NCBI GenBank assembly: GCA_002773395.1
Contig: PFBI01000006.1
Span: 156,657 to 220,656 of the forward strand
Origin: Candidatus Kaiserbacteria bacterium CG10_big_fil_rev_8_21_14_0_10_47_16
Lineage (GTDB): Bacteria > Patescibacteriota > Minisyncoccia > Phycocordibacterales > UBA918
Reading direction: 5' to 3'
DNA: 64,000 nt
In this document: in pieces, positions 543 to 37,886 of the stretch
Numbering within the stretch: the stretch's first letter is position 1
Layout: each line of letters opens with the position of its first letter
Notes under the pieces: generated by a model
The model's input: only the letters and a program-made list of their open reading frames with translations
What the model was told of the DNA's origin: nothing
The model's database searches: none
Translations under genes and position numbers: made by a program

Positions 543-1952
543 CTACAGCTCTCCATTCATCTTTTTACCAAAATCGAAGAGACGCGCGTCGCCCGCGTGC
601 GGTCCAATACATTGTACCCCAACCGGTAGGAGAACACCGTCACGATCTACTGTGCCTGCGGGGATAGAGAGCGCAGGAACACCAGTCAGGTTTGCGGGTA
701 CCGTGAAGATGTCTGCAAGGTACATCGAGAGTGGGTCACTCTTCTCGCCAATTTTAAATGCAGGTACCGGAGACGTTGGTGTGAGAAGAATATCGACATC
801 TTTAAATACCGCATCGAGTTCATCACGCATCATCTCACGCACTTGTTCTGCTTTGCCATAGTATGAATCGTAGTATCCCGCGGAGAGCACGTACGTACCG
901 AGCAAGATGCGACGCTTCACTTCTTCACCAAACCCTTGCGCACGCGTTAGCATGTAGTCATCGAGTAAATCAGCGCCGTCAACATGGAGGCCATACCGCA
1001 CGCCGTCAAATCGTCCGAGGTTCGAAGATACTTCTGCTGGCATCACGATGTAATACGCAGCAAGCCCTTTTTCCATAAGTGGAAGTGTTACATCAACAAT
1101 TTCATGACCAGCTTCTTTTAGTTTTGTGAGCGTTGATTCAAATACCGCAGAGACATCCGCATCAATACCTGTACCGAGAAAGTCTCGGGGTACTCCAATA
1201 CGGTACGTATCCTTAAGCGGTACAAGTGGGTATGTGTCAGCGTTAATTGTCGTTGCATCGAGAGGATCTTTCCCGGAAATGATGTTGTGAATTATTTCAG
1301 CATCAGCGACTGTGTTTGTGAGCGGACCTGCTTGATCGAGTGATGAGCCCATCGCGATAAGGCCCGAACGCGAGACACTTCCGTACGTCGGCTTATACCC
1401 CACAACACCGCAGAAGCTTGCCGGCTGTCGCACCGAACCACCTGTGTCAGTACCGAGCGCAGCGACCGCAGCACCCATCGCAACAGCAGCTGCCGATCCT
1501 CCTGATGATCCGCCGGGTACTCGAGATTCATCGACAGGATTTCGGGTAATACCAAACGCAGAACTCTCTGTTGAAGAACCCATGGCGAACTCATCCATAT
1601 TGGTAGCTCCTACAAAGAGTGCGCCTGCTTCCTTTAGTTTCGTAATAACAGTTGCATCGTATGTCGCGACATAATGTTCAAGCATCTTTGATGACGCAGT
1701 TGCTCGCTTCCCTTCAATTAAAATATTTGTCTTAATCGCAATCGGCATACCAAGGAGGGCTGGCGCATTTTCACCTTCTGTCTTGTAGCGCGCAGTCGCT
1801 TCTTCCGCAGACGCCATTGCATCGTCAAACACATCGACGAATGCGTTGATCGTTCCGTCACGTTCATCAATAACTTTTTGTATATCAGTAAGAGCGTCTA
1901 CTGGTGTGTAGCTCCCCTCAACAAATTTCTTTCGTAATTCTGAAATCGTCAT
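543..1952 (-). CDS. gatA: Glu-tRNA(Gln)/Asp-tRNA(Asn) amidotransferase subunit A (amidase signature family)
   Basis: 469 aa. Amidase-signature G/S-rich block GGSSGGSAAAVA...GTDTGGSVRQPA; its length and its position just downstream of gatC are typical. Confidence 0.9.
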   Translation of the reverse strand: MTISELRKKFVEGSYTPVDALTDIQKVIDERDGTINAFVDVFDDAMASAEEATARYKTEGENAPALLGMPIAIKTNILIEGKRATASSKMLEHYVATYDATVITKLKEAGALFVGATNMDEFAMGSSTESSAFGITRNPVDESRVPGGSSGGSAAAVAMGAAVAALGTDTGGSVRQPASFCGVVGYKPTYGSVSRSGLIAMGSSLDQAGPLTNTVADAEIIHNIISGKDPLDATTINADTYPLVPLKDTYRIGVPRDFLGTGIDADVSAVFESTLTKLKEAGHEIVDVTLPLMEKGLAAYYIVMPAEVSSNLGRFDGVRYGLHVDGADLLDDYMLTRAQGFGEEVKRRILLGTYVLSAGYYDSYYGKAEQVREMMRDELDAVFKDVDILLTPTSPVPAFKIGEKSDPLSMYLADIFTVPANLTGVPALSIPAGTVDRDGVLLPVGVQCIGPHAGDARLFDFGKKMNGEL

Positions 1953-1956
1953 ACTA

Positions 1957-2247
1957 TTATTTTCGCTCTCCCAAAATTTTCTTTACCTCTACATACTGCC
2001 CCTTCCGGACCGGCGCAGCTGCAAGGATACGTTCAGTGTATTCCCCCGGCTCATGATTTGGCACATCCTCTCGCATCACGTTATACAACGCACCAATTTC
2101 CTTTGGCTTTTCGGTTGCCGTGATGTCACCAATGGCACTCACGTATCCAAGAATATCAGTAATATTTTCTGCAAGATGGTCCTGCTCAGACTCCGTAAGT
2201 TTGATGCGCGCGAGGGTCGCGAGATGTGCGATATCTTCTCGTTTCAT
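1957..2247 (-). CDS. gatC: Glu-tRNA(Gln) amidotransferase subunit C
   Basis: 96 aa. Typical GatC N-terminus (MKREDIAHLATLARIKLTESE); 4-nt gap to gatA. Confidence 0.8.
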   Translation of the reverse strand: MKREDIAHLATLARIKLTESEQDHLAENITDILGYVSAIGDITATEKPKEIGALYNVMREDVPNHEPGEYTERILAAAPVRKGQYVEVKKILGERK

Positions 2248-2273
2248 ATGATGGCTATACTAGCATACACAGG

Positions 2274-5551
<3,278 letters not shown>

Positions 5552-7549: not shown

Positions 7550-7741
7550 GTGCGCGGGAGAGGACTTGATTCTTACAGAATCTGTTCAGGCTGCACCACA
7601 AGAGTACTTTGATTTTCTAAAACGCAAGCGTTAAGAAAATCTGGTCGTATGATATTTTTCATACCTCAAAATATCGACAACCTTTTCAAGTCCTCTCCAT
7701 ACAAAGAAACACCAGAGAGACTCTGGTGTTTCTTTACTTTG

Positions 7742-7823
7742 TGCGCGGGAGAGGACTTGAACCTCCACGGATTACTCCACCAGTTCCTAAGACTGGCGCG
7801 GCTACCAATTACGCCACCCGCGC
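7742..7823 (-). tRNA. tRNA-Leu (anticodon TAG), type II with long variable arm
   Basis: Manual cloverleaf on the reverse complement: acceptor GCGCGGG/CCCGCGC, anticodon loop CTTAGGA, long variable arm, T-loop TTCAAGT. Confidence 0.8.
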
Positions 7824-8009
7824 ATATTTGTGACCGGTGCAGAATATCATGATATGCGAGTATCGTCACGGGTTTTGTGTATGTCATCACGAGTCACTAA
7901 GTCGCTACGCTCATAAGTGCTGGCGATCCCGCCTCGTCTGTGGCAAAGCCGCATGACTCCGGCTCGGACAAGCTAAAATCCTGACGCAGGTCAGGATTTT
8001 AAACGCTTG

Positions 8010-8082
8010 TCCGCCCACTAGGACTCGAACCTAGGACCGTCTCGTTAAGAGCGAGCTGCTCTACCAACTGAGCTATGGGCGG
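8010..8082 (-). tRNA. tRNA-Lys (anticodon CTT)
   Basis: Reverse complement folds as CCGCCCA-TA-GCTC AGTTGGTA GAGC-A-GCTCG CTCTTAA CGAGA...CTAGG TTCGAGT CCTAG TGGGCGG A. Confidence 0.8.
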
Positions 8083-8221
8083 GACTGTACCATTGTGACT
8101 GCACTGTGCAGTCTGAGGAGTGCTCTTAATGTTAAGAGCGGTAGATGAGTCTAGTAGACTCATCTACCTCCACCACCTCCGCTATGGGCGGATGTAGGTC
8201 AGAGTGTACTAAATTACACCA

Positions 8222-8305
8222 CCGAAAACAAGCTATATAGTGTGTCTGGGGCGGGGATCGAACCCGCACGGTCTTGCGACCACGAAATTTTAAGTCTCGC
8301 GCGGC
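8222..8305 (-). tRNA. tRNA-Leu (anticodon TAA), type II
   Basis: Reverse complement: acceptor GTCTGGG/CCCAGAC, anticodon loop CTTAAAA, long variable arm TGGTCGCAAGACCGT, T-loop TTCGATC. Confidence 0.8.
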
Positions 8306-8397
8306 TACCAATTACGCCACCCAGACATGCCGAGCATCATATCATATTTCACTTGGTTATGACTCCAATGGATGATAAAGTAATCCTTGTCACAAAC

Positions 8398-8469
8398 GGC
8401 CAGGTGGCGAAGTGGTAACGCTTCGGTTTGCAAAACCGACATGCACGGGTTCGAACCCCGTCCTGGCCT
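8398..8469 (+). tRNA. tRNA-Cys (anticodon GCA)
   Basis: GGCCAGG-TG-GCG AAGTGGTAA CGC-T-TCGGT TTGCAAA ACCGA...ACGGG TTCGAAC CCCGT CCTGGCC T. CCA is not encoded. Confidence 0.8.
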
Positions 8470-8535
8470 CAAACGAAACGGAGTGAAGTGCAGAGGTCAG
8501 GACAAAAGCGACAACAGTCGCTTTTGTTGAGGTTC

Positions 8536-18987: not shown

Positions 18988-19608
18988 CTACCCTTTCAGG
19001 ACAATCACTTCCCCTTCCATCGTCAAAAGTTCTTTCTTCTTTATCGTGAGTTTTTCTTCAGGCTTCCCATTTGTTGAACCTTCCTCTTTCAGAAACGCTT
19101 CGAGCGATTTTGCATCGTAGTGCATTGGAATAATAACGCGTGCCTCAAGCTTCGCACCGAGCTTCGCTGCGGCCGGAACATCAAGCACATCCCCGCCACC
19201 AATAGGAACAAAGAGGATATCAATATCACCAAATTCACTCAGAATCTTAGAATCAATGTCAGAGCTAGAGAGCGCGCCGAGGAACACCATATTGATTCCT
19301 TCGAGCGTGATTTGGTAAATCGTATTAAATCGTTCTTGTTTGTCGTACGTTGTCTGTACGCCGTATCCACGAGCGGTCACTTCACCTACTTCATACTCTC
19401 CGGGACCATCAACAACGAATGGTTGCTTTGCGCCAAACGCAACCTCATCAGCACCATCAAAGTCAGGGTGGTGCATTGAGATAAATGCAACGTCTGCACC
19501 AAACTTCACCGGAGTGAGATCTGACTTCTTTGAAATAGGGTTAAGGGCGAGCGTGGTGTTTCCAAATGCCACTTTAAAACACTCGCCGCCGTGATGTGTG
19601 ATTACCAT
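18988..19608 (-). CDS. MBL-fold metallo-hydrolase (UPF0173-like)
   Basis: MVITHHGGECFKV...FISMHHPDF...LFVPIGG. Start taken at M50 (ATG 19606-08), because the longer track ORF overlaps structured non-coding sequence. Confidence 0.65.
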   Translation of the reverse strand: MVITHHGGECFKVAFGNTTLALNPISKKSDLTPVKFGADVAFISMHHPDFDGADEVAFGAKQPFVVDGPGEYEVGEVTARGYGVQTTYDKQERFNTIYQITLEGINMVFLGALSSSDIDSKILSEFGDIDILFVPIGGGDVLDVPAAAKLGAKLEARVIIPMHYDAKSLEAFLKEEGSTNGKPEEKLTIKKKELLTMEGEVIVLKG

Positions 19609-19877
19609 AGTGCAGCAAGTATACCAGACTCCTTCTCTGTTTGACAAAGCAAGAGAATATTCGTATATTACGTGTCCCTGTGGAGCGTTGTACGTCCCTT
19701 GTCCTTCACGGGGTGCAGGACAGGCGGCCAGTCGATCGACCATGTTTTCCAACATAGTCCAGCTCCAACTAGACTATGCGATGAAGACGAAATCCTTCGG
19801 CTGGCCGCCGCACCTACGTTCTTGGTTTCCTTCCGGAAACACAATCCTGCTGGACCTTCGGTCCGGCTTTTTTAATA

Positions 19878-20151
19878 TTGACAAAATGATTCATTGTAGT
19901 AGAGTAATGATGGTTTGCGCGCACAGGCCAAACAGCAGCGAAGCCGATCGGCAAAGTTCGTTTTAGAGCTTTATGGTTCACCACATCCCCTCCCTTGGTG
20001 GTAATCATACCTTTCATTGCGGAATCTCCCGCCTGTCGGACCCCCCTCCTGACAGAAAAGATGAGAGAGTGCCGGTCGGCCAGCCGCCGACCTTATCTGT
20101 ACGCAATTAAGTACGCCCCATGCCCGAGTATGCTTCATACTCGGCTTTTTT
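19878..20151 (+). ncRNA. candidate sRNA 1: promoter TTGACA-N16-TAGAGT through a rho-independent terminator
   Basis: -35 at 19878-83, -10 at 19900-05. Terminator ccgagtatg-ctt-catactcgg + TTTTTT at 20124-20151. Internal hairpins have C-rich loops containing CCUCC (caccacatcccctcccttggtgg; ctgtcggacccccctcctgacag). Confidence 0.35.
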
Positions 20152-20168
20152 ATTATCCACAGGCATTC

Positions 20169-20390
20169 TTGACGCTTGGTAAAGACAGGGGTAGACTACT
20201 TGTATTGGTCTTCATCGGGGAGTTATCCAATCGCGGAATCACACAGATTCCACAAAGGTCAGCTCCTTCAAAAAAACCAATCTCTGCAAAGCGCAGATTC
20301 GTTCTTTAGAAGCTTCGGCTTCCACCACATTTGAGACATTAGTCTCATTCCATCGTCCACAAACGCCTATCTCCGATACGGCGTTTTTTG
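20169..20390 (+). ncRNA. candidate sRNA 2: promoter TTGACG-N17-TAGACT through a terminator
   Basis: -35 at 20169-74, -10 at 20192-97. Terminator aacgcctatc-tcc-gatacggcgtt + TTTTTTGTTG at 20361-20390. Confidence 0.3.
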
Positions 20391-20418
20391 TTGTCAAAAC
20401 AGATGTTTTATAGTATTA
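20390..20418 (+). promoter_or_regulatory. sigma-70-type promoter of rpsA (TTGTCA-N17-TATTAT)
   Basis: -35 at 20390-95 overlaps the T-tract of the upstream terminator; -10 at 20413-18; about 120-nt 5' UTR. Confidence 0.5.
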
Positions 20419-20538
20419 TCTCGCCACCTGAAAAGGTTTATTAATTTCTAGCGGGGTGTGCTAACCCTGTCCTCACGAACACGGCCAGAGAAACGCTTGG
20501 ACAGAAACATACCGCCGGATACAAATACATAGTTTTAT

Positions 20539-21750
20539 ATGCCAGAAGAAAAAGCATCGGTCCTCGACCGCATTGTTTCTGCAGTAACCTCAAAGAATGA
20601 GAGTGACGCAGACGTAGCACCCGCTACACCAAAAGCATCTGAAGATGAAGAACCCGAAGATGCAGCAGACAAGAAGCTCAGTCTCATGCAAACATTGCTT
20701 GTAGACAGCCCGACACCTCCAAAGGAAGGTGACATTATTGAAGGTACCGTATCAGCAATTGGTCGCGCTCGTGTATACATCGACTTGCCACCATTTGGTA
20801 CTGGTCTCTTGTACGGACGTGAATTCATGAACGCTCGAGATATCCTCCGTAAGGTAGGTATCGGTGATAGTATCGCAGCGAAAGTTGTTGATGCTGGAAA
20901 CGAAGATGGCTACATTGAGCTTTCACTCAAGGAAGCTCGACAAGCACTCATCTGGAGTGATGCTGAAGCAGGTGCAAAGAATCAGACTGTCATGAGTCTT
21001 GAGGTCAAAGAAGCAAACAAGGGTGGTCTCATCCTTGATTGGCAAGGTATCCAAGGATTCCTCCCAGCGTCACAGCTTGCAGCTGAACACTACCCACGTG
21101 TTGAAGACGGTGATAAGGATAAAATCCTTTACGAACTTCAAAATCTCGTTGGTCAATTCCTTTCAGTAATTATCATTACTGCGGATCAGAAAGAAGGTAA
21201 GCTCATCTTCTCTGAAAAGGGGCCACAAGAAAAAGAAGAGAAGGAAGAGAAAGTACGAAACTACGAAGTTGGTGATACGCTCTCAGGAGAGATCACTGGT
21301 GTTGTAGACTTCGGTGTCTTCGTCAAGCTTGAGGAAGGACTTGAAGGTCTCGTACACATCTCAGAACTCGACTGGGGACTCGTTGAAGATACTCGCAGTA
21401 TGTACAAGGTTGGTGATCGCGTACAGGTGAAAGTGATTGAAGTAAAGGATGACAAGATTTCTCTCTCAATCAAACAGCTCCGCGAGAACCCTTGGGTATC
21501 TGCAGGAAACAAATACAAGAAAGAACAGGAAGTACAGGGTGTTATCATCAAGTACAACAAGCACGGTGCGCTCGCATCTATCGAGGAAGGTGTTGCTGGT
21601 CTCGTACACATCTCAGAATTTGAGAGTGAAGAAGATCTTAAGAACAAGCTTTCACTCGGACAGAGCTATCCGTTTACCATTACACTCTTTGAACCAAAGG
21701 AACAGCGTATGACGCTTTCGTTTAAGAAAGAGGAGGAAGTGAAGAAGTAA
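20539..21750 (+). CDS. rpsA: 30S ribosomal protein S1 (short, 4 S1 domains)
   Basis: Repeated S1 domains (GEITGVVDFGVFVKLEEGLEGLVHISELDW..., GVIIKYNKHGALASIEEGVAGLVHISEF). Confidence 0.85.
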   Translation: MPEEKASVLDRIVSAVTSKNESDADVAPATPKASEDEEPEDAADKKLSLMQTLLVDSPTPPKEGDIIEGTVSAIGRARVYIDLPPFGTGLLYGREFMNARDILRKVGIGDSIAAKVVDAGNEDGYIELSLKEARQALIWSDAEAGAKNQTVMSLEVKEANKGGLILDWQGIQGFLPASQLAAEHYPRVEDGDKDKILYELQNLVGQFLSVIIITADQKEGKLIFSEKGPQEKEEKEEKVRNYEVGDTLSGEITGVVDFGVFVKLEEGLEGLVHISELDWGLVEDTRSMYKVGDRVQVKVIEVKDDKISLSIKQLRENPWVSAGNKYKKEQEVQGVIIKYNKHGALASIEEGVAGLVHISEFESEEDLKNKLSLGQSYPFTITLFEPKEQRMTLSFKKEEEVKK

Positions 21751-30390: not shown

Positions 30391-30654
30391 TTATTCATTG
30401 CCGCTCACCCTGATGGGTATTTGCTGGGTGAACTTACTGTTCTTCTTCTCCAGCTTTTTGCAGATCTTCCTCTGGAGGAAGTCTCCAGGACGAGAGCAAA
30501 CTTCGCTCTTGACCTGATGTCCAAGTTTCGGTCGGTGTTCCGGCTGCATTGACCAACCGACAAAGACTGCTACGGCGACAAGGGCCATGGCGGTCATCAC
30601 CGCTTTGAGGTTACCAAAGCCCGCTTGTGTGTTCATTCTCCTTCCTTTCTTCAC
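30391..30654 (-). CDS. hypothetical small membrane protein
   Basis: 87 aa, one TM; followed by its own terminator hairpin at 30338-30366. Confidence 0.3.
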   Translation of the reverse strand: MKKGRRMNTQAGFGNLKAVMTAMALVAVAVFVGWSMQPEHRPKLGHQVKSEVCSRPGDFLQRKICKKLEKKNSKFTQQIPIRVSGNE

Positions 30655-30753
30655 GAATCGAAACCACCATGGTCCGATTTCCTATATACAGTGACATCTC
30701 AAGCCATTTGTGTCAATGGACCTTATTGGATCCAATTCGCCACCTCTCCTCCT

Positions 30754-30951
30754 TTAGGATTCAATGGGGGCCAGGACGTCGTACTGGCACCTAATATCCC
30801 CTTCTTCCGTCACACCTACCGCATGCCCTTTTATTCCTGCATGTACGCAGAAGTGGTCAAATTCGGAATACGGTGATCCTGTGAAGAACACCGCGTATAC
30901 CGTACCAGCAATAATGCTGAGCACCGCACCAATCAAAAGTTGCTTTCGCAT
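30754..30951 (-). CDS. hypothetical small secreted protein
   Basis: 65 aa with an N-terminal hydrophobic segment. Confidence 0.25.
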   Translation of the reverse strand: MRKQLLIGAVLSIIAGTVYAVFFTGSPYSEFDHFCVHAGIKGHAVGVTEEGDIRCQYDVLAPIES

Positions 30952-31022
30952 GGAATAATCTCCTTCTTTTCCAATGTTTTTATAGCATATTTGGATAGTT
31001 TGTCAATATACGGTGCTTGGGG

Positions 31023-31367
31023 CCGGGCTCGGTCACGAATCACTAAGTATATTTTTGCTACGCTAAAATATACTTAGTGTTCTCGACCCGTGAAAAGCAA
31101 TTCAATATTGCTTTTCACCACGCCTCCCTCGTCCACAGGACGCGGCGCTCCGGCTTTCGAGCCGAGGCTCGGCGTCTAACTCTAGTTCACTACGTTCACA
31201 AGAGTTACCTGCCCGAGCATTTGAATTCTTGCATTAGAAATAGCAAAAATATACAAATGCTTTTCGAGCCCGACCGTAGGACGCGCCTGCGTCCTACTCC
31301 CCAAGCACACATACACAAAAACCGCCCTGAGGCGGTTTTTGTGTATGTGTGCTTGGGGCCGGGCTCG
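31023..31367. repeat. ~307-bp insert next to tRNA-Phe, flanked by an exact 19-nt direct repeat of the tRNA 3' end (gtgcttggggccgggctcg at 31023-31041 and 31349-31367)
   Basis: The direct repeat is visible in the sequence. The interior is hairpin-dense and includes a 28-bp perfect palindrome at 31299-31358 that incorporates the tRNA acceptor end. Confidence 0.5.
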
Positions 31368-31422: not shown

Positions 31423-31496
31423 ATTTGGTTTCCGAACGCTGCTTGGGCAAGCTGTGCTTACCCAAGCAAGTGAGTACTAGAATACCAAAAAAAGTC

Positions 31497-31793
31497 TTAT
31501 TCTCCAACTTCCCCACCAAAGAACTCCTGAAAGGCTCTCACCCCAGGAATCTCGTTAAGACCAACCTGAAACGTATCATACGAAGACCCGAACGCGTTGA
31601 AGTATGGTTCCAACACATAGAAGTAGAGTGCGAACGGAAGTCCAATGAGCACAACGTACCACAGTACACGGAGAATACCGTTAAAGATACTCCAGTGGTA
31701 GAGACGCTTGAGTATCTTATTGTTGTCTTCAAGGACTCGGTTGTTTCGCTCAATGAGTTGACGTAGGAGTGTATGGTCATCTTGTTCTGACAT
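31497..31793 (-). CDS. hypothetical membrane protein
   Basis: 98 aa, two TM helices. Confidence 0.35.
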   Translation of the reverse strand: MSEQDDHTLLRQLIERNNRVLEDNNKILKRLYHWSIFNGILRVLWYVVLIGLPFALYFYVLEPYFNAFGSSYDTFQVGLNEIPGVRAFQEFFGGEVGE

Positions 31794-31831
31794 AGGAACA
31801 GTATATCAAAGGGTTTTAAAGAGATCTGGAG

Positions 31832-37049: not shown

Positions 37050-37886
37050 TCATTTTTGAGCACAAAGTTTCCTCGCTTCTTCGAGTGCCTCACCCATTTT
37101 AGACGATGAAATCCCCTTTCCTTCAAGCATTTCTGGCCGCGCGACGATATCACGACACAGAATCACACCTGACGCAAGCAAACGTTCTTTCTGGCTACTT
37201 GAGAGGCTTGCAAGTACCGTAATCGGATACATGCCGGCTCGTTCGATGCGATTTTGTAGTGAGTTTCCTTTTGGCGCATTCCATCCAATAAGTTCGATGC
37301 CACTGCAGCGTGCGTAGTCGATTGCTGCTTTGGTGAATTTTGTATTCGTGACCACGTAGAGTGACACGACACCACATACATCATCCCGACACACTGCCGT
37401 TGATTTCAAATCGAGGTACCGTGCGTATGAGTACATTGCGACCTGTAGATCAGATTTAATACCAGGATGACCATGAAACTTTGCTTCCGCTACAAAGCTG
37501 TGATCTGCGCGATATCCTGCAACATCAATTTCATGTGTTGCGCACTTTCCTCGGAGTGTGAGGCGTGTTTTTGTTTTATATCCTTCTGCTTCAAAGAGAC
37601 GCGCAAGAAAGTCTTCAAAGGGAAACCCTGTCGGACCAAGTCCAAAGAGCGCACGGCGAAGCGAGTACTTTGCGGCAACCGGTCGCGTACTCTCACGAAG
37701 GAGCGCAAACGCAGCACGATAGATTTCGTCAGTCTTCATCCCTTCACTTAATGAAGCTTCTATCTGTCCTACAATACTTTCTACCTCCGCTTTCGCAGCT
37801 CCCGCGCGCCGGAGTGAGCGGCGTAATTTATTTGAATCAAACAGCTCTCTCGTCCCATCCGCTTTTGTAATAACTACGTTTTTCAT
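37050..37886 (-). CDS. ATP-cone domain fused to Mrr-like restriction-endonuclease-fold (PD-(D/E)XK) domain
   Basis: N-terminal VVITKADGTRELFDSNKLRRSLRRAGA (ATP-cone); ...FEDFLARLFEAEGY...HEIDVAGY...VAEAKF (Mrr_cat D...EAK). ATGA start/stop overlap with mnmA (37883-37886). Confidence 0.6.
   Translation of the reverse strand: MKNVVITKADGTRELFDSNKLRRSLRRAGAAKAEVESIVGQIEASLSEGMKTDEIYRAAFALLRESTRPVAAKYSLRRALFGLGPTGFPFEDFLARLFEAEGYKTKTRLTLRGKCATHEIDVAGYRADHSFVAEAKFHGHPGIKSDLQVAMYSYARYLDLKSTAVCRDDVCGVVSLYVVTNTKFTKAAIDYARCSGIELIGWNAPKGNSLQNRIERAGMYPITVLASLSSSQKERLLASGVILCRDIVARPEMLEGKGISSSKMGEALEEARKLCAQK

Follow-up and report, generated by a model that had tools for sequence, protein, structure and literature searches.

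A long spacer upstream of rpsA in a Kaiserbacteria genome probably holds three small RNA genes and a conserved structured leader

What occupies 930 base pairs (bp) of gene-free DNA directly upstream of rpsA, the gene for ribosomal protein S1, when the spacers around it have a median length of about 61 bp? The question is raised by a 64-kb (64,000-nucleotide, nt) stretch of contig PFBI01000006.1 from Candidatus Kaiserbacteria bacterium CG10_big_fil_rev_8_21_14_0_10_47_16, a bacterium of the candidate phyla radiation (CPR); we call this whole stretch the window and number positions from its first letter. The region in question (19609-20538) lies between a gene for an MBL-fold hydrolase and rpsA, and the second largest spacer of the window measures 620 bp. 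A first, sequence-only reading had described the region as unusually long, lacking a credible open reading frame (ORF) and containing two candidate small RNAs (sRNAs). The first two of these statements are borne out below. We consider it probable that the spacer is made up of four independent, co-directional transcription units, namely three sRNA genes (U0, U1 and U2) and the rpsA promoter with a structured leader. U0, U1 and U2 would each extend from a sigma-70-type promoter of their own to an intrinsic terminator. These three units are restricted to the lineage of the window and its closest relative, and the leader is conserved across a large Paceibacterota clade.

Is the region truly free of protein-coding genes? 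Several ORFs of 45-104 amino acids are present inside it, and one source's gene call places a hypothetical protein of 67 amino acids on the minus strand at 19814-20017, overlapping U0 and U1, so that at least one unit might be thought to encode a micro-protein. A Pfam search with the ORFs inside 19609-20538 gave no family match. When these ORFs were compared by tblastx with the spacer of the nearest relative (contig L085), similarity was found in all six frames and was broken by stops in all of them; no ORF is conserved, no remnant coding frame is visible, and the insertions and deletions are not multiples of three. No plus-strand ORF of at least 20 amino acids beginning with ATG is common to the two spacers. 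The 67-residue minus-strand ORF likewise has no Pfam match, is absent from the NCBI annotation, which calls no gene there, and is not conserved in L085. Based on these comparisons, we regard a small-protein gene as extremely unlikely.

The layout of transcription signals suggests what the region holds instead. A consensus scan of 2 kb (19000-21000) found six promoter-like sites where 2.1 +/- 1.5 were expected and seven terminator-like sites where 1.7 +/- 1.2 were expected. On the plus strand, promoters and terminators alternate strictly, four co-directional promoters enclosing three strong terminators that each consist of an 8-9-bp GC-rich stem followed by T6. Significance of folding is given below as the z-score of the minimum free energy against dinucleotide shuffles. 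The features are as follows.

19641..19669, plus strand: U0 promoter, TTGACA-N17-TATATT, agreeing with 11 of 12 consensus positions (scan; -35 box in the same place in L085).
19676..19873, plus strand: candidate sRNA U0, about 198 nt (z = -6.2; L085 homolog by nhmmer, E = 1.4e-15).
19849-19867 plus T6, plus strand: U0 terminator (scan).
19878..19905, plus strand: U1 promoter, TTGACA-N16-TAGAGT (scan; TTGACA kept in L085).
19912..20151, plus strand: candidate sRNA U1, about 240 nt (z = -4.5; same architecture in L085, z = -5.2).
19943..20080, plus strand: four-way junction core of U1 (fold; covariance model R1).
19985..19997, plus strand: U1 loop 1, AUCCCCUCCCUUG, 13 nt (fold, L085 and alphaproteobacterial sRNAs).
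20040..20049, plus strand: U1 loop 2, ACCCCCCUCC (fold).
20124-20144 plus T6, plus strand: U1 terminator (scan).
20169..20197, plus strand: U2 promoter, TTGACG-N17-TAGACT (scan; the aligned L085 site is TTGACT-N16-TAAAAT).
20204..20389, plus strand: candidate sRNA U2, about 186 nt (z = -6.1; L085 homolog by nhmmer, E = 2.3e-13).
~20361-20386, T-run 20384-20389, plus strand: U2 terminator (sequence and U2 fold; not among the scan's sites).
20391..20419, plus strand: rpsA promoter, TTGTCA-N17-TATTAT (scan; position conserved across relatives).
20416..20538, plus strand: structured 5' leader of rpsA (bS1) (nhmmer, alignment A5, covariance model R2).
20539..21750, plus strand: rpsA, ribosomal protein S1, 403 amino acids, start at 20539.
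19618..19647, minus strand: promoter of the MBL-fold hydrolase gene, TTGTCA-N18-TATACT with an extended TG (consensus scan).

Both promoters (19878-19905 and 20169-20197) and both terminators named in the sequence-only reading are thus present, the U1 terminator by scan and that of U2 by sequence and fold. Its two candidates, U1 and U2, are real in the sense that they are delimited, structured and conserved in L085; the number of units is three, since U0 had been missed. It had also placed the U-tract of the U2 terminator across the -35 box of rpsA. The two are adjacent, in that the T-run (20384-20389) abuts the box (TTGTCA, 20391-20396) in the window and likewise in L085, with no strict overlap. 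Of the coupling of sRNA read-through to S1 expression that was suggested in that reading, this adjacency is the part that is shown.

At the other border, the U0 promoter stands back-to-back with that of the MBL-fold hydrolase gene. This gene is read from the minus strand with its true start at 19608 (MVITHHGG), a longer ORF of 255 amino acids being an upstream extension. The -10 box ends about 9 nt before the ATG at 19608, and the mRNA therefore looks leaderless. The next largest ORF-poor gaps of the window, 30637-31256 (620 bp) and 31423-31831 (409 bp), lie on either side of a gene for tRNA-Phe; they contain no terminator-like site, no Rfam match and, as promoter-like sites, two weak (9/12) minus-strand matches.

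Each unit is predicted to fold into a distinct architecture. U1 has a 5' hairpin, the four-way junction core, a small hairpin and the terminator followed by U6. The core is closed by a stem of 11 bp and has three arms, of which one is a short hairpin and the other two end in C-rich apical loops. Loop 1, AUCCCCUCCCUUG, contains seven cytosines and loop 2, ACCCCCCUCC, contains eight; in the latter UCC pairs partly with GGA, leaving a C6 loop. The two C-rich hairpin loops with CCUCC that had been reported for this RNA are therefore real. Across the window CCCTCC is not enriched (15 found, 15.7 expected), and its double occurrence in loops, at a distance of 56 nt, is therefore a local feature. In U0, a 5' hairpin precedes a long GC-rich hairpin (GGCGGCCAGUCGA / UCGGCUGGCCGCC), after which come a small hairpin and the terminator with its U6. 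The apical loop of the GC-rich hairpin, CAGCUCCAAC, contains CUCC and is conserved in L085. The 5' hairpin of U2 spans 78 nt and contains symmetric internal loops; three small hairpins and a terminator with U6 follow. The structure of U2 is conserved in L085, and U2 displays no obvious seed.

The three units are not claimed to be paralogs, because local alignments between them reach z-scores of 0.7-4.8 that are due to one GC-rich motif and to the promoter and terminator elements they share. Stretches of complementarity exist between U0 (19710-19727) and the loop-2 arm of U1 (20029-20046; 18 nt, 78%) and between U0 (19779-19791) and the 5' end of U2 (20205-20217; 13 nt, 92%). Both were set aside: we estimate that neither is far from what chance would give in 1 kb, and the U0-U2 pairing, by reading, is not kept in L085.

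Are these structures under selection? The S1 protein of the window recurs in identical form in GCA_009991995.1 (Candidatus Parcubacteria bacterium) and in three JGI metagenome contigs, all with an identical 930-bp spacer. The S1 proteins of 80 species-level relatives, which are Paceibacterota metagenome-assembled genomes annotated as Kaiserbacteria, Nomurabacteria or Parcubacteria, are 61-80% identical to it. The protein database yielded one closer lineage only, P0002/P0003 (contig L085), with an S1 that is 88% identical, and the contigs of this lineage have identical spacers except for the partial variant L096. The L085 spacer, 942 bp long, contains all three units in the same order and with the same alternating layout from first promoter to last; a scan of it found seven promoter-like sites against 0.9 expected and six terminator-like sites against 1.2 expected. 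Folded independently, the L085 units adopt the same architectures with z-scores of -5.2 to -9.1, which gives a range of -4.5 to -9.1 for both lineages together.

The manner in which the two lineages differ is informative. U0 and U2 align well between them, whereas U1 is much more diverged. Helix P2 of U1 is AAGUUC/GAGCUU in the window and ACGAAG/CUUCGU in L085, so pairing is kept, and P3, P4 and all three terminators also keep their pairing with changed sequence. The 5' hairpin of U0 behaves in the same way (CCCUGUGGAG/CUUCACGGGG versus CUCCGCG/CGCGGAG). Within U1, conservation is highest in the C-rich loops: loop 1, AUCCCCUCCCUUG, is unchanged in L085 despite a different stem (CACCAC/GUGGU versus CGUC/GACG), and the counterpart of loop 2 is CCCCCCCU. 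Because helices are compensated and no ORF is shared between the window and L085, these comparisons support selection at the RNA level on U0-U2 in two independent lineages. The units have the properties expected of stand-alone sRNA genes, that is, a promoter of their own, an intrinsic terminator and no conserved ORF, with compensated structure found between two lineages only.

Beyond these two lineages, the spacer has a different history. Practically all relatives share the gene order gyrA-orf-MBL / rpsA-pth. The length of the MBL-rpsA spacer, by contrast, varies between 150 and 2360 bp (L001-L099), with contents unrelated between lineages, and all-against-all blastn of the spacers links just two other pairs. 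Some of them contain accessory genes: L052 has one for a histone-deacetylase-family protein (2739-3719) and L058 one for a subtilase (2154-3236); eight other proteins encoded in spacers of relatives have no Pfam match. Loss of conservation, or occupation by a gene, in relatives had been named in the sequence-only reading as an outcome that would count against its candidates. This is what is seen beyond the closest lineage, as in L052 and L058, and it is not seen in L085. Other lineages also stack promoter-to-terminator cassettes in this spacer, with a terminator directly before the next promoter, and some of these cassettes are ORF-free and structured. Spacer segments have a mean z-score of -2.0, with 26% below -3, compared with a mean of -0.5 and 2% below -3 for rpsA coding controls. 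We propose that the spacer is a hotspot in which lineages would have acquired different promoter-to-terminator cassettes. In L089, whose S1 is 83% identical, the spacer (1292-3500, 2.2 kb) has promoters of its own (1370, 2328, 2919, 3402) and terminators, together with segments whose z-scores go down to -10 and, on the rpsA strand, five hairpins with C-rich loops; none of this can be aligned to U0-U2.

Such complete turnover of content between species-level relatives, together with the accessory genes in some of them, also invites the view that U0-U2 are evolutionary debris, remnants of cassettes or decayed genes in a hypervariable spacer that are perhaps transcribed and have no selected function. 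Debris would not be expected to show compensatory substitutions that maintain structure between two lineages, an invariant loop amid diverged stems, promoters and terminators in register in L085, or a tblastx comparison without any remnant of a coding frame. We therefore judge this explanation to be quite unlikely and retain the reading of three sRNA genes.

What precedes rpsA in the other relatives? The leader is the only widely conserved part of 19609-20538 and its most robust element. It comprises a 5' hairpin P1, the single-stranded segment UUAUUARUUYCUAG, a long-range helix P2 around UAACCC, a helix P3 and a conserved ACGGCCAGAGA motif, and it leads to an ATG at 20539 that is not preceded by a Shine-Dalgarno (SD) sequence. 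Its z-score alone is -0.4. It was found by nhmmer in about 30-40 loci, and in an alignment of 23 sequences (A5) with two helices 10 of 15 pairs are compensatory and 95.6% of cells are paired. The covariation score is 0.635, compared with at most 0.137 in slid controls, and none of 500 shuffles scored as high. With covariance model R2, 60 of the 86 sources searched gave a match (30-118 bits), always a single one per locus and directly before rpsA; many of these sources were outside the R2 seed. The 5' hairpin also covaries by eye (ACCU/AGGU, ACUC/GAGU, ACCG/CGGU). In several lineages extra hairpins are inserted in the apical part of P3 (L085 at ~3398-3470; L035, L029, L092, L045 and L017).

This element is a conserved, covarying and structured part of the 5' untranslated region of a ribosomal protein gene, as ribosomal protein leaders are, and it matches no Rfam family, the leader families included. 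In E. coli, S1 represses its own SD-less mRNA. By analogy with E. coli rpsA and with other ribosomal protein leaders, the leader is most likely an autoregulatory S1-binding element of an SD-less rpsA mRNA; by binding to this folded structure in its own message, S1 would exert autogenous control. The likeness is one of arrangement, as both leaders stand before an SD-less S1 gene, whereas their sequences and folds are unrelated. The ribosomal protein leaders of E. coli are mostly confined to Gammaproteobacteria (PMC3616713).

It could be asked at this point whether U0-U2 are simply part of the control region of rpsA, three promoters and leaky terminators that give graded read-through into the gene (a multi-attenuator 5' region) with no role in trans. 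All units are co-directional with rpsA, and the T-run of U2 abuts the rpsA -35 box in both lineages. However, the gene has its own conserved promoter, and its leader is present in 60 of 86 sources, nearly all of which are without U0-U2. The terminators, moreover, are strong (8-9-bp GC-rich stems, T6), and pure read-through would leave the conserved internal helices and the 13-nt loop unexplained. A purely cis-acting role thus appears rather improbable to us, and separate sRNA genes still account better for these features.

If U0-U2 are sRNAs, are they known ones? At the gathering score, Rfam assigns six tRNAs and nothing else in the whole window; four of the tRNA genes, Leu, Lys, Leu and Cys, form a cluster on both strands at 7741-8470. 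A cmscan of 19500-20650 at E <= 10 returned chance-level matches only, with none of U0-U2 or the leader assigned. Only one weak match is of relevance, that of the second C-rich hairpin with F6, a mycobacterial sRNA, over 23 nt (local, 19.9 bits; gathering score 46). ARAGORN on the window reported no transfer-messenger RNA (tmRNA) and tRNAs elsewhere only, and neither program found 6S RNA, signal recognition particle (SRP) RNA, RNase P RNA or tmRNA in the window; the same spacer in 17 relatives yielded no relevant Rfam match. The earlier statement that no hallmark of RNase P, tmRNA, SRP or 6S RNA is visible, and that the RNAs may be novel, agrees with this outcome. U0, U1, U2 and the leader are all absent from Rfam, and they belong to known kinds of RNA, C-rich-seed stand-alone sRNAs and a ribosomal protein leader.

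Among known sRNAs, three classes resemble U1 most closely. The sequence-only reading had compared it with RsaE/RoxS. As family membership this fails, since RF01820 is not listed at E <= 10. The shared traits are C-rich unpaired motifs and a stand-alone gene with its own terminator, U1 having two C-rich loops and a terminator. In RoxS/RsaE the C-rich motifs serve as seeds against G-rich ribosome-binding sites, but that RNA is about 100 nt long with CCCC motifs, lacks a four-way junction and is confined to Firmicutes. The 6C sRNA of Actinobacteria (B11, RF01066) has, like U1, two hairpins whose loops each contain at least six cytosines. No RF01066 match was obtained at E <= 10, and size and fold differ. 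The targets of 6C are G-rich sites in SD-using, high-GC organisms, and its two C-rich-loop stem-loops bind several mRNAs directly, without a chaperone (PMC6486639). The CcsR or 'cuckoo' sRNAs of Alphaproteobacteria (RSs0680, SmelC397; CcsR1, RF02791) share with U1 hairpins with a C-rich, anti-SD-like loop motif, have a terminator for each gene and often lie next to one another in several copies or units. Their stems covary freely with scant sequence conservation beyond close relatives (PMC4615179). Their motif, CCUCCUCCC, is found in two to four adjacent hairpins arranged in a linear series, whereas the loops of U1, CCCCUCCC and CCCCCCUCC, are carried on arms of a four-way junction. U1 also differs in its host, a CPR bacterium with almost no SD usage, and CcsR1 has no match at E <= 10 in this region.

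Because the C-rich loop is fixed while the stems drift, as in 6C and cuckoo/CcsR, the best reading of U1 by analogy is a seed-bearing base-pairing sRNA. We propose that U1 acts in trans and that its loops, AUCCCCUCCCUUG and ACCCCCCUCC, would serve as seeds that pair with G-rich, GGGAGGGG-like sites in a limited set of targets, with a mode of action like that of the 6C, CcsR/cuckoo and RoxS classes. U0, with its loop CAGCUCCAAC, and U2 would be further sRNAs.

A related arrangement of loops occurs in another phylum. A metagenome scan with a pattern made of loop 1 followed by a C6 run returned at least 119 stretches, almost all of them random-looking. Among the stretches listed, those on contigs L139 and L158 stand out as an sRNA of two hairpins and a terminator. 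The apical motifs are those of U1, closing pairs included (CAC-AUCCCCUCCCUUG-GUG and CGGA-CCCCCC-UCC(U)G), so that about 15 positions are identical to U1 beyond what the pattern demands, and the loop-2 motif CGGACCCCCCUCCUG is identical. The basal stems differ from those of U1, yet they pair. Contig L139 encodes ftsK and lolA, and the relatives of its LolA point to Emcibacter- or Iodidimonas-like Alphaproteobacteria; three further genomes (L219-L221) have the same sRNA downstream of lolA.

L139, 5440-5600: alphaproteobacterial sRNA.
L158, 1035-1205, minus strand: the same sRNA.
L219, ~2364-2520: the same sRNA.
L220, ~2352-2520: the same sRNA.
L221, ~2362-2520: the same sRNA.

This sRNA is not a member of any Rfam family, its best scores being 22.5 bits for CrfA (gathering score 38) and 10.6 bits for CcsR1 (65.3). 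A possible RpoH-like promoter, TTGAAA...CAAATA, was read by eye. Covariance model R1, built from the U1 core of the window alone, was run against 0.7 Mb, where its only matches were the alphaproteobacterial sRNAs, at 21-36 bits, and L085, at 28 bits, with none in the other ~80 CPR loci; as the alphaproteobacterial loci came from a pattern that requires loop 1, these scores are not independent evidence. The alphaproteobacterial RNA differs from U1 in that its hairpins are serial, followed by the terminator, with no junction, and it lies in another context and another phylum. The likeness could reflect homology, horizontal transfer or convergence on a single target. Four pattern scans of viral contigs and a blastn search against plasmids gave no match that would indicate a phage or plasmid origin.

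Several observations weigh against U0-U2 as sRNA genes with U1 acting through its loops. The transcription start sites were placed from consensus boxes alone. Comparative support for the three units comes from two lineages, the other copies being identical strains, and searches of the 80 species-level relatives with blastn and nhmmer, and with R1 for U1, gave no match. Since they are undetectable in these relatives, U0-U2 are young or fast-evolving and could be dispensable. In alignment A7, which places U1 with the alphaproteobacterial sRNAs, pairing holds in 92% of cells and both sides have changed in 34 of the 49 pairs, but the fitting of this alignment to the structure of the model biases these counts upward. 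SD-like 4-mers at -18 to -4 precede 6 of 54 long ORFs, compared with 5-8 of 54 in control windows, and are thus at background, which removes the obvious class of targets for anti-SD-like loops. Near-complementary sites for the loops are about 2-fold more frequent in the window than in shuffles, but their positions are within genes, on the purine-rich coding strand, and not at starts.

How, then, could U1 work in such a genome? A TAnnnT box lies 5-18 nt upstream of the ATG in 22 of 54 long ORFs, which suggests leaderless or very short-leader mRNAs for many genes. Leaderless-looking or SD-poor starts include 18433 (gyrA), 18899, 19608 (MBL-fold hydrolase gene), 20539 (rpsA), 22462 and 24370. With SD-like motifs at background upstream of starts, a general occlusion of SD sequences is doubtful, and the suggestion in the sequence-only reading that U1 blocks ribosome-binding sites by anti-SD mimicry is weakened by this background and by the many leaderless-looking genes. 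The search for targets by complementarity of the CCUCC loops to SD regions, which that reading had recommended, was run across the window and found no convincing site at gene starts; the best site, GGGGGAGG, lies upstream of a minus-strand ORF (37050-37886). Because the genome hardly uses SD sequences, the targets of U1 would probably be a few specific G-rich sites and not ribosome-binding sites in general.

The scarcity of obvious anti-SD targets in an SD-poor genome also gives some room to a different kind of partner. S1 is known to prefer RNA that is single-stranded and rich in pyrimidines or A/U. In U1, and maybe in U0 and U2, the pyrimidine-rich loops could be protein sites, making the units sponges that tune the level of free S1 or that titrate a KH-domain protein of the KhpA/B kind. 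Consistent with this, the units lie directly upstream of rpsA and in the same direction in both CPR lineages, and C-rich-loop hairpins are about 2-fold commoner on the rpsA strand of relatives' spacers (0.43/kb versus 0.21/kb), five of them in L089. This enrichment is modest, however, and units of this kind are missing before rpsA in most relatives. In Alphaproteobacteria, the sRNA that shares the loops adjoins lolA, not rpsA, and by inspection U0-U2 share no motif with the leader, the likeliest S1 ligand. Titration of a protein is therefore unlikely in our estimation, and base pairing through the C-rich loops remains the reading that we prefer for U1.

It is also conceivable that the double C-rich-loop module of U1 and the alphaproteobacterial sRNA are the same element, related by horizontal transfer or by very deep ancestry, and that the MBL-rpsA spacer is a dedicated landing pad for regulatory-RNA cassettes of Paceibacterota. 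We put this forward as a speculative idea of low probability. If it were true, the loops may recognize a target common to both phyla or, more adventurously, an episymbiotic CPR cell may keep an anti-SD-type RNA for use against the transcripts of an SD-using host.

The regulatory RNAs of the CPR are essentially uncharted, and in this tiny genome a single locus provides several concrete candidates, among them an sRNA candidate whose seed-like loop stays constant as the stems change. The S1 leader motif, backed by covariation over some 60 genomes, represents a ribosomal protein regulatory RNA in a phylum for which none has been catalogued. The identical loops of the alphaproteobacterial sRNA suggest a wider, uncatalogued family. 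Most interesting are the cross-phylum identity of the U1 loops and the SD-poor host. An anti-SD-like sRNA in an SD-poor genome with leaderless-looking genes raises the question of what C-rich-loop sRNAs actually recognize.

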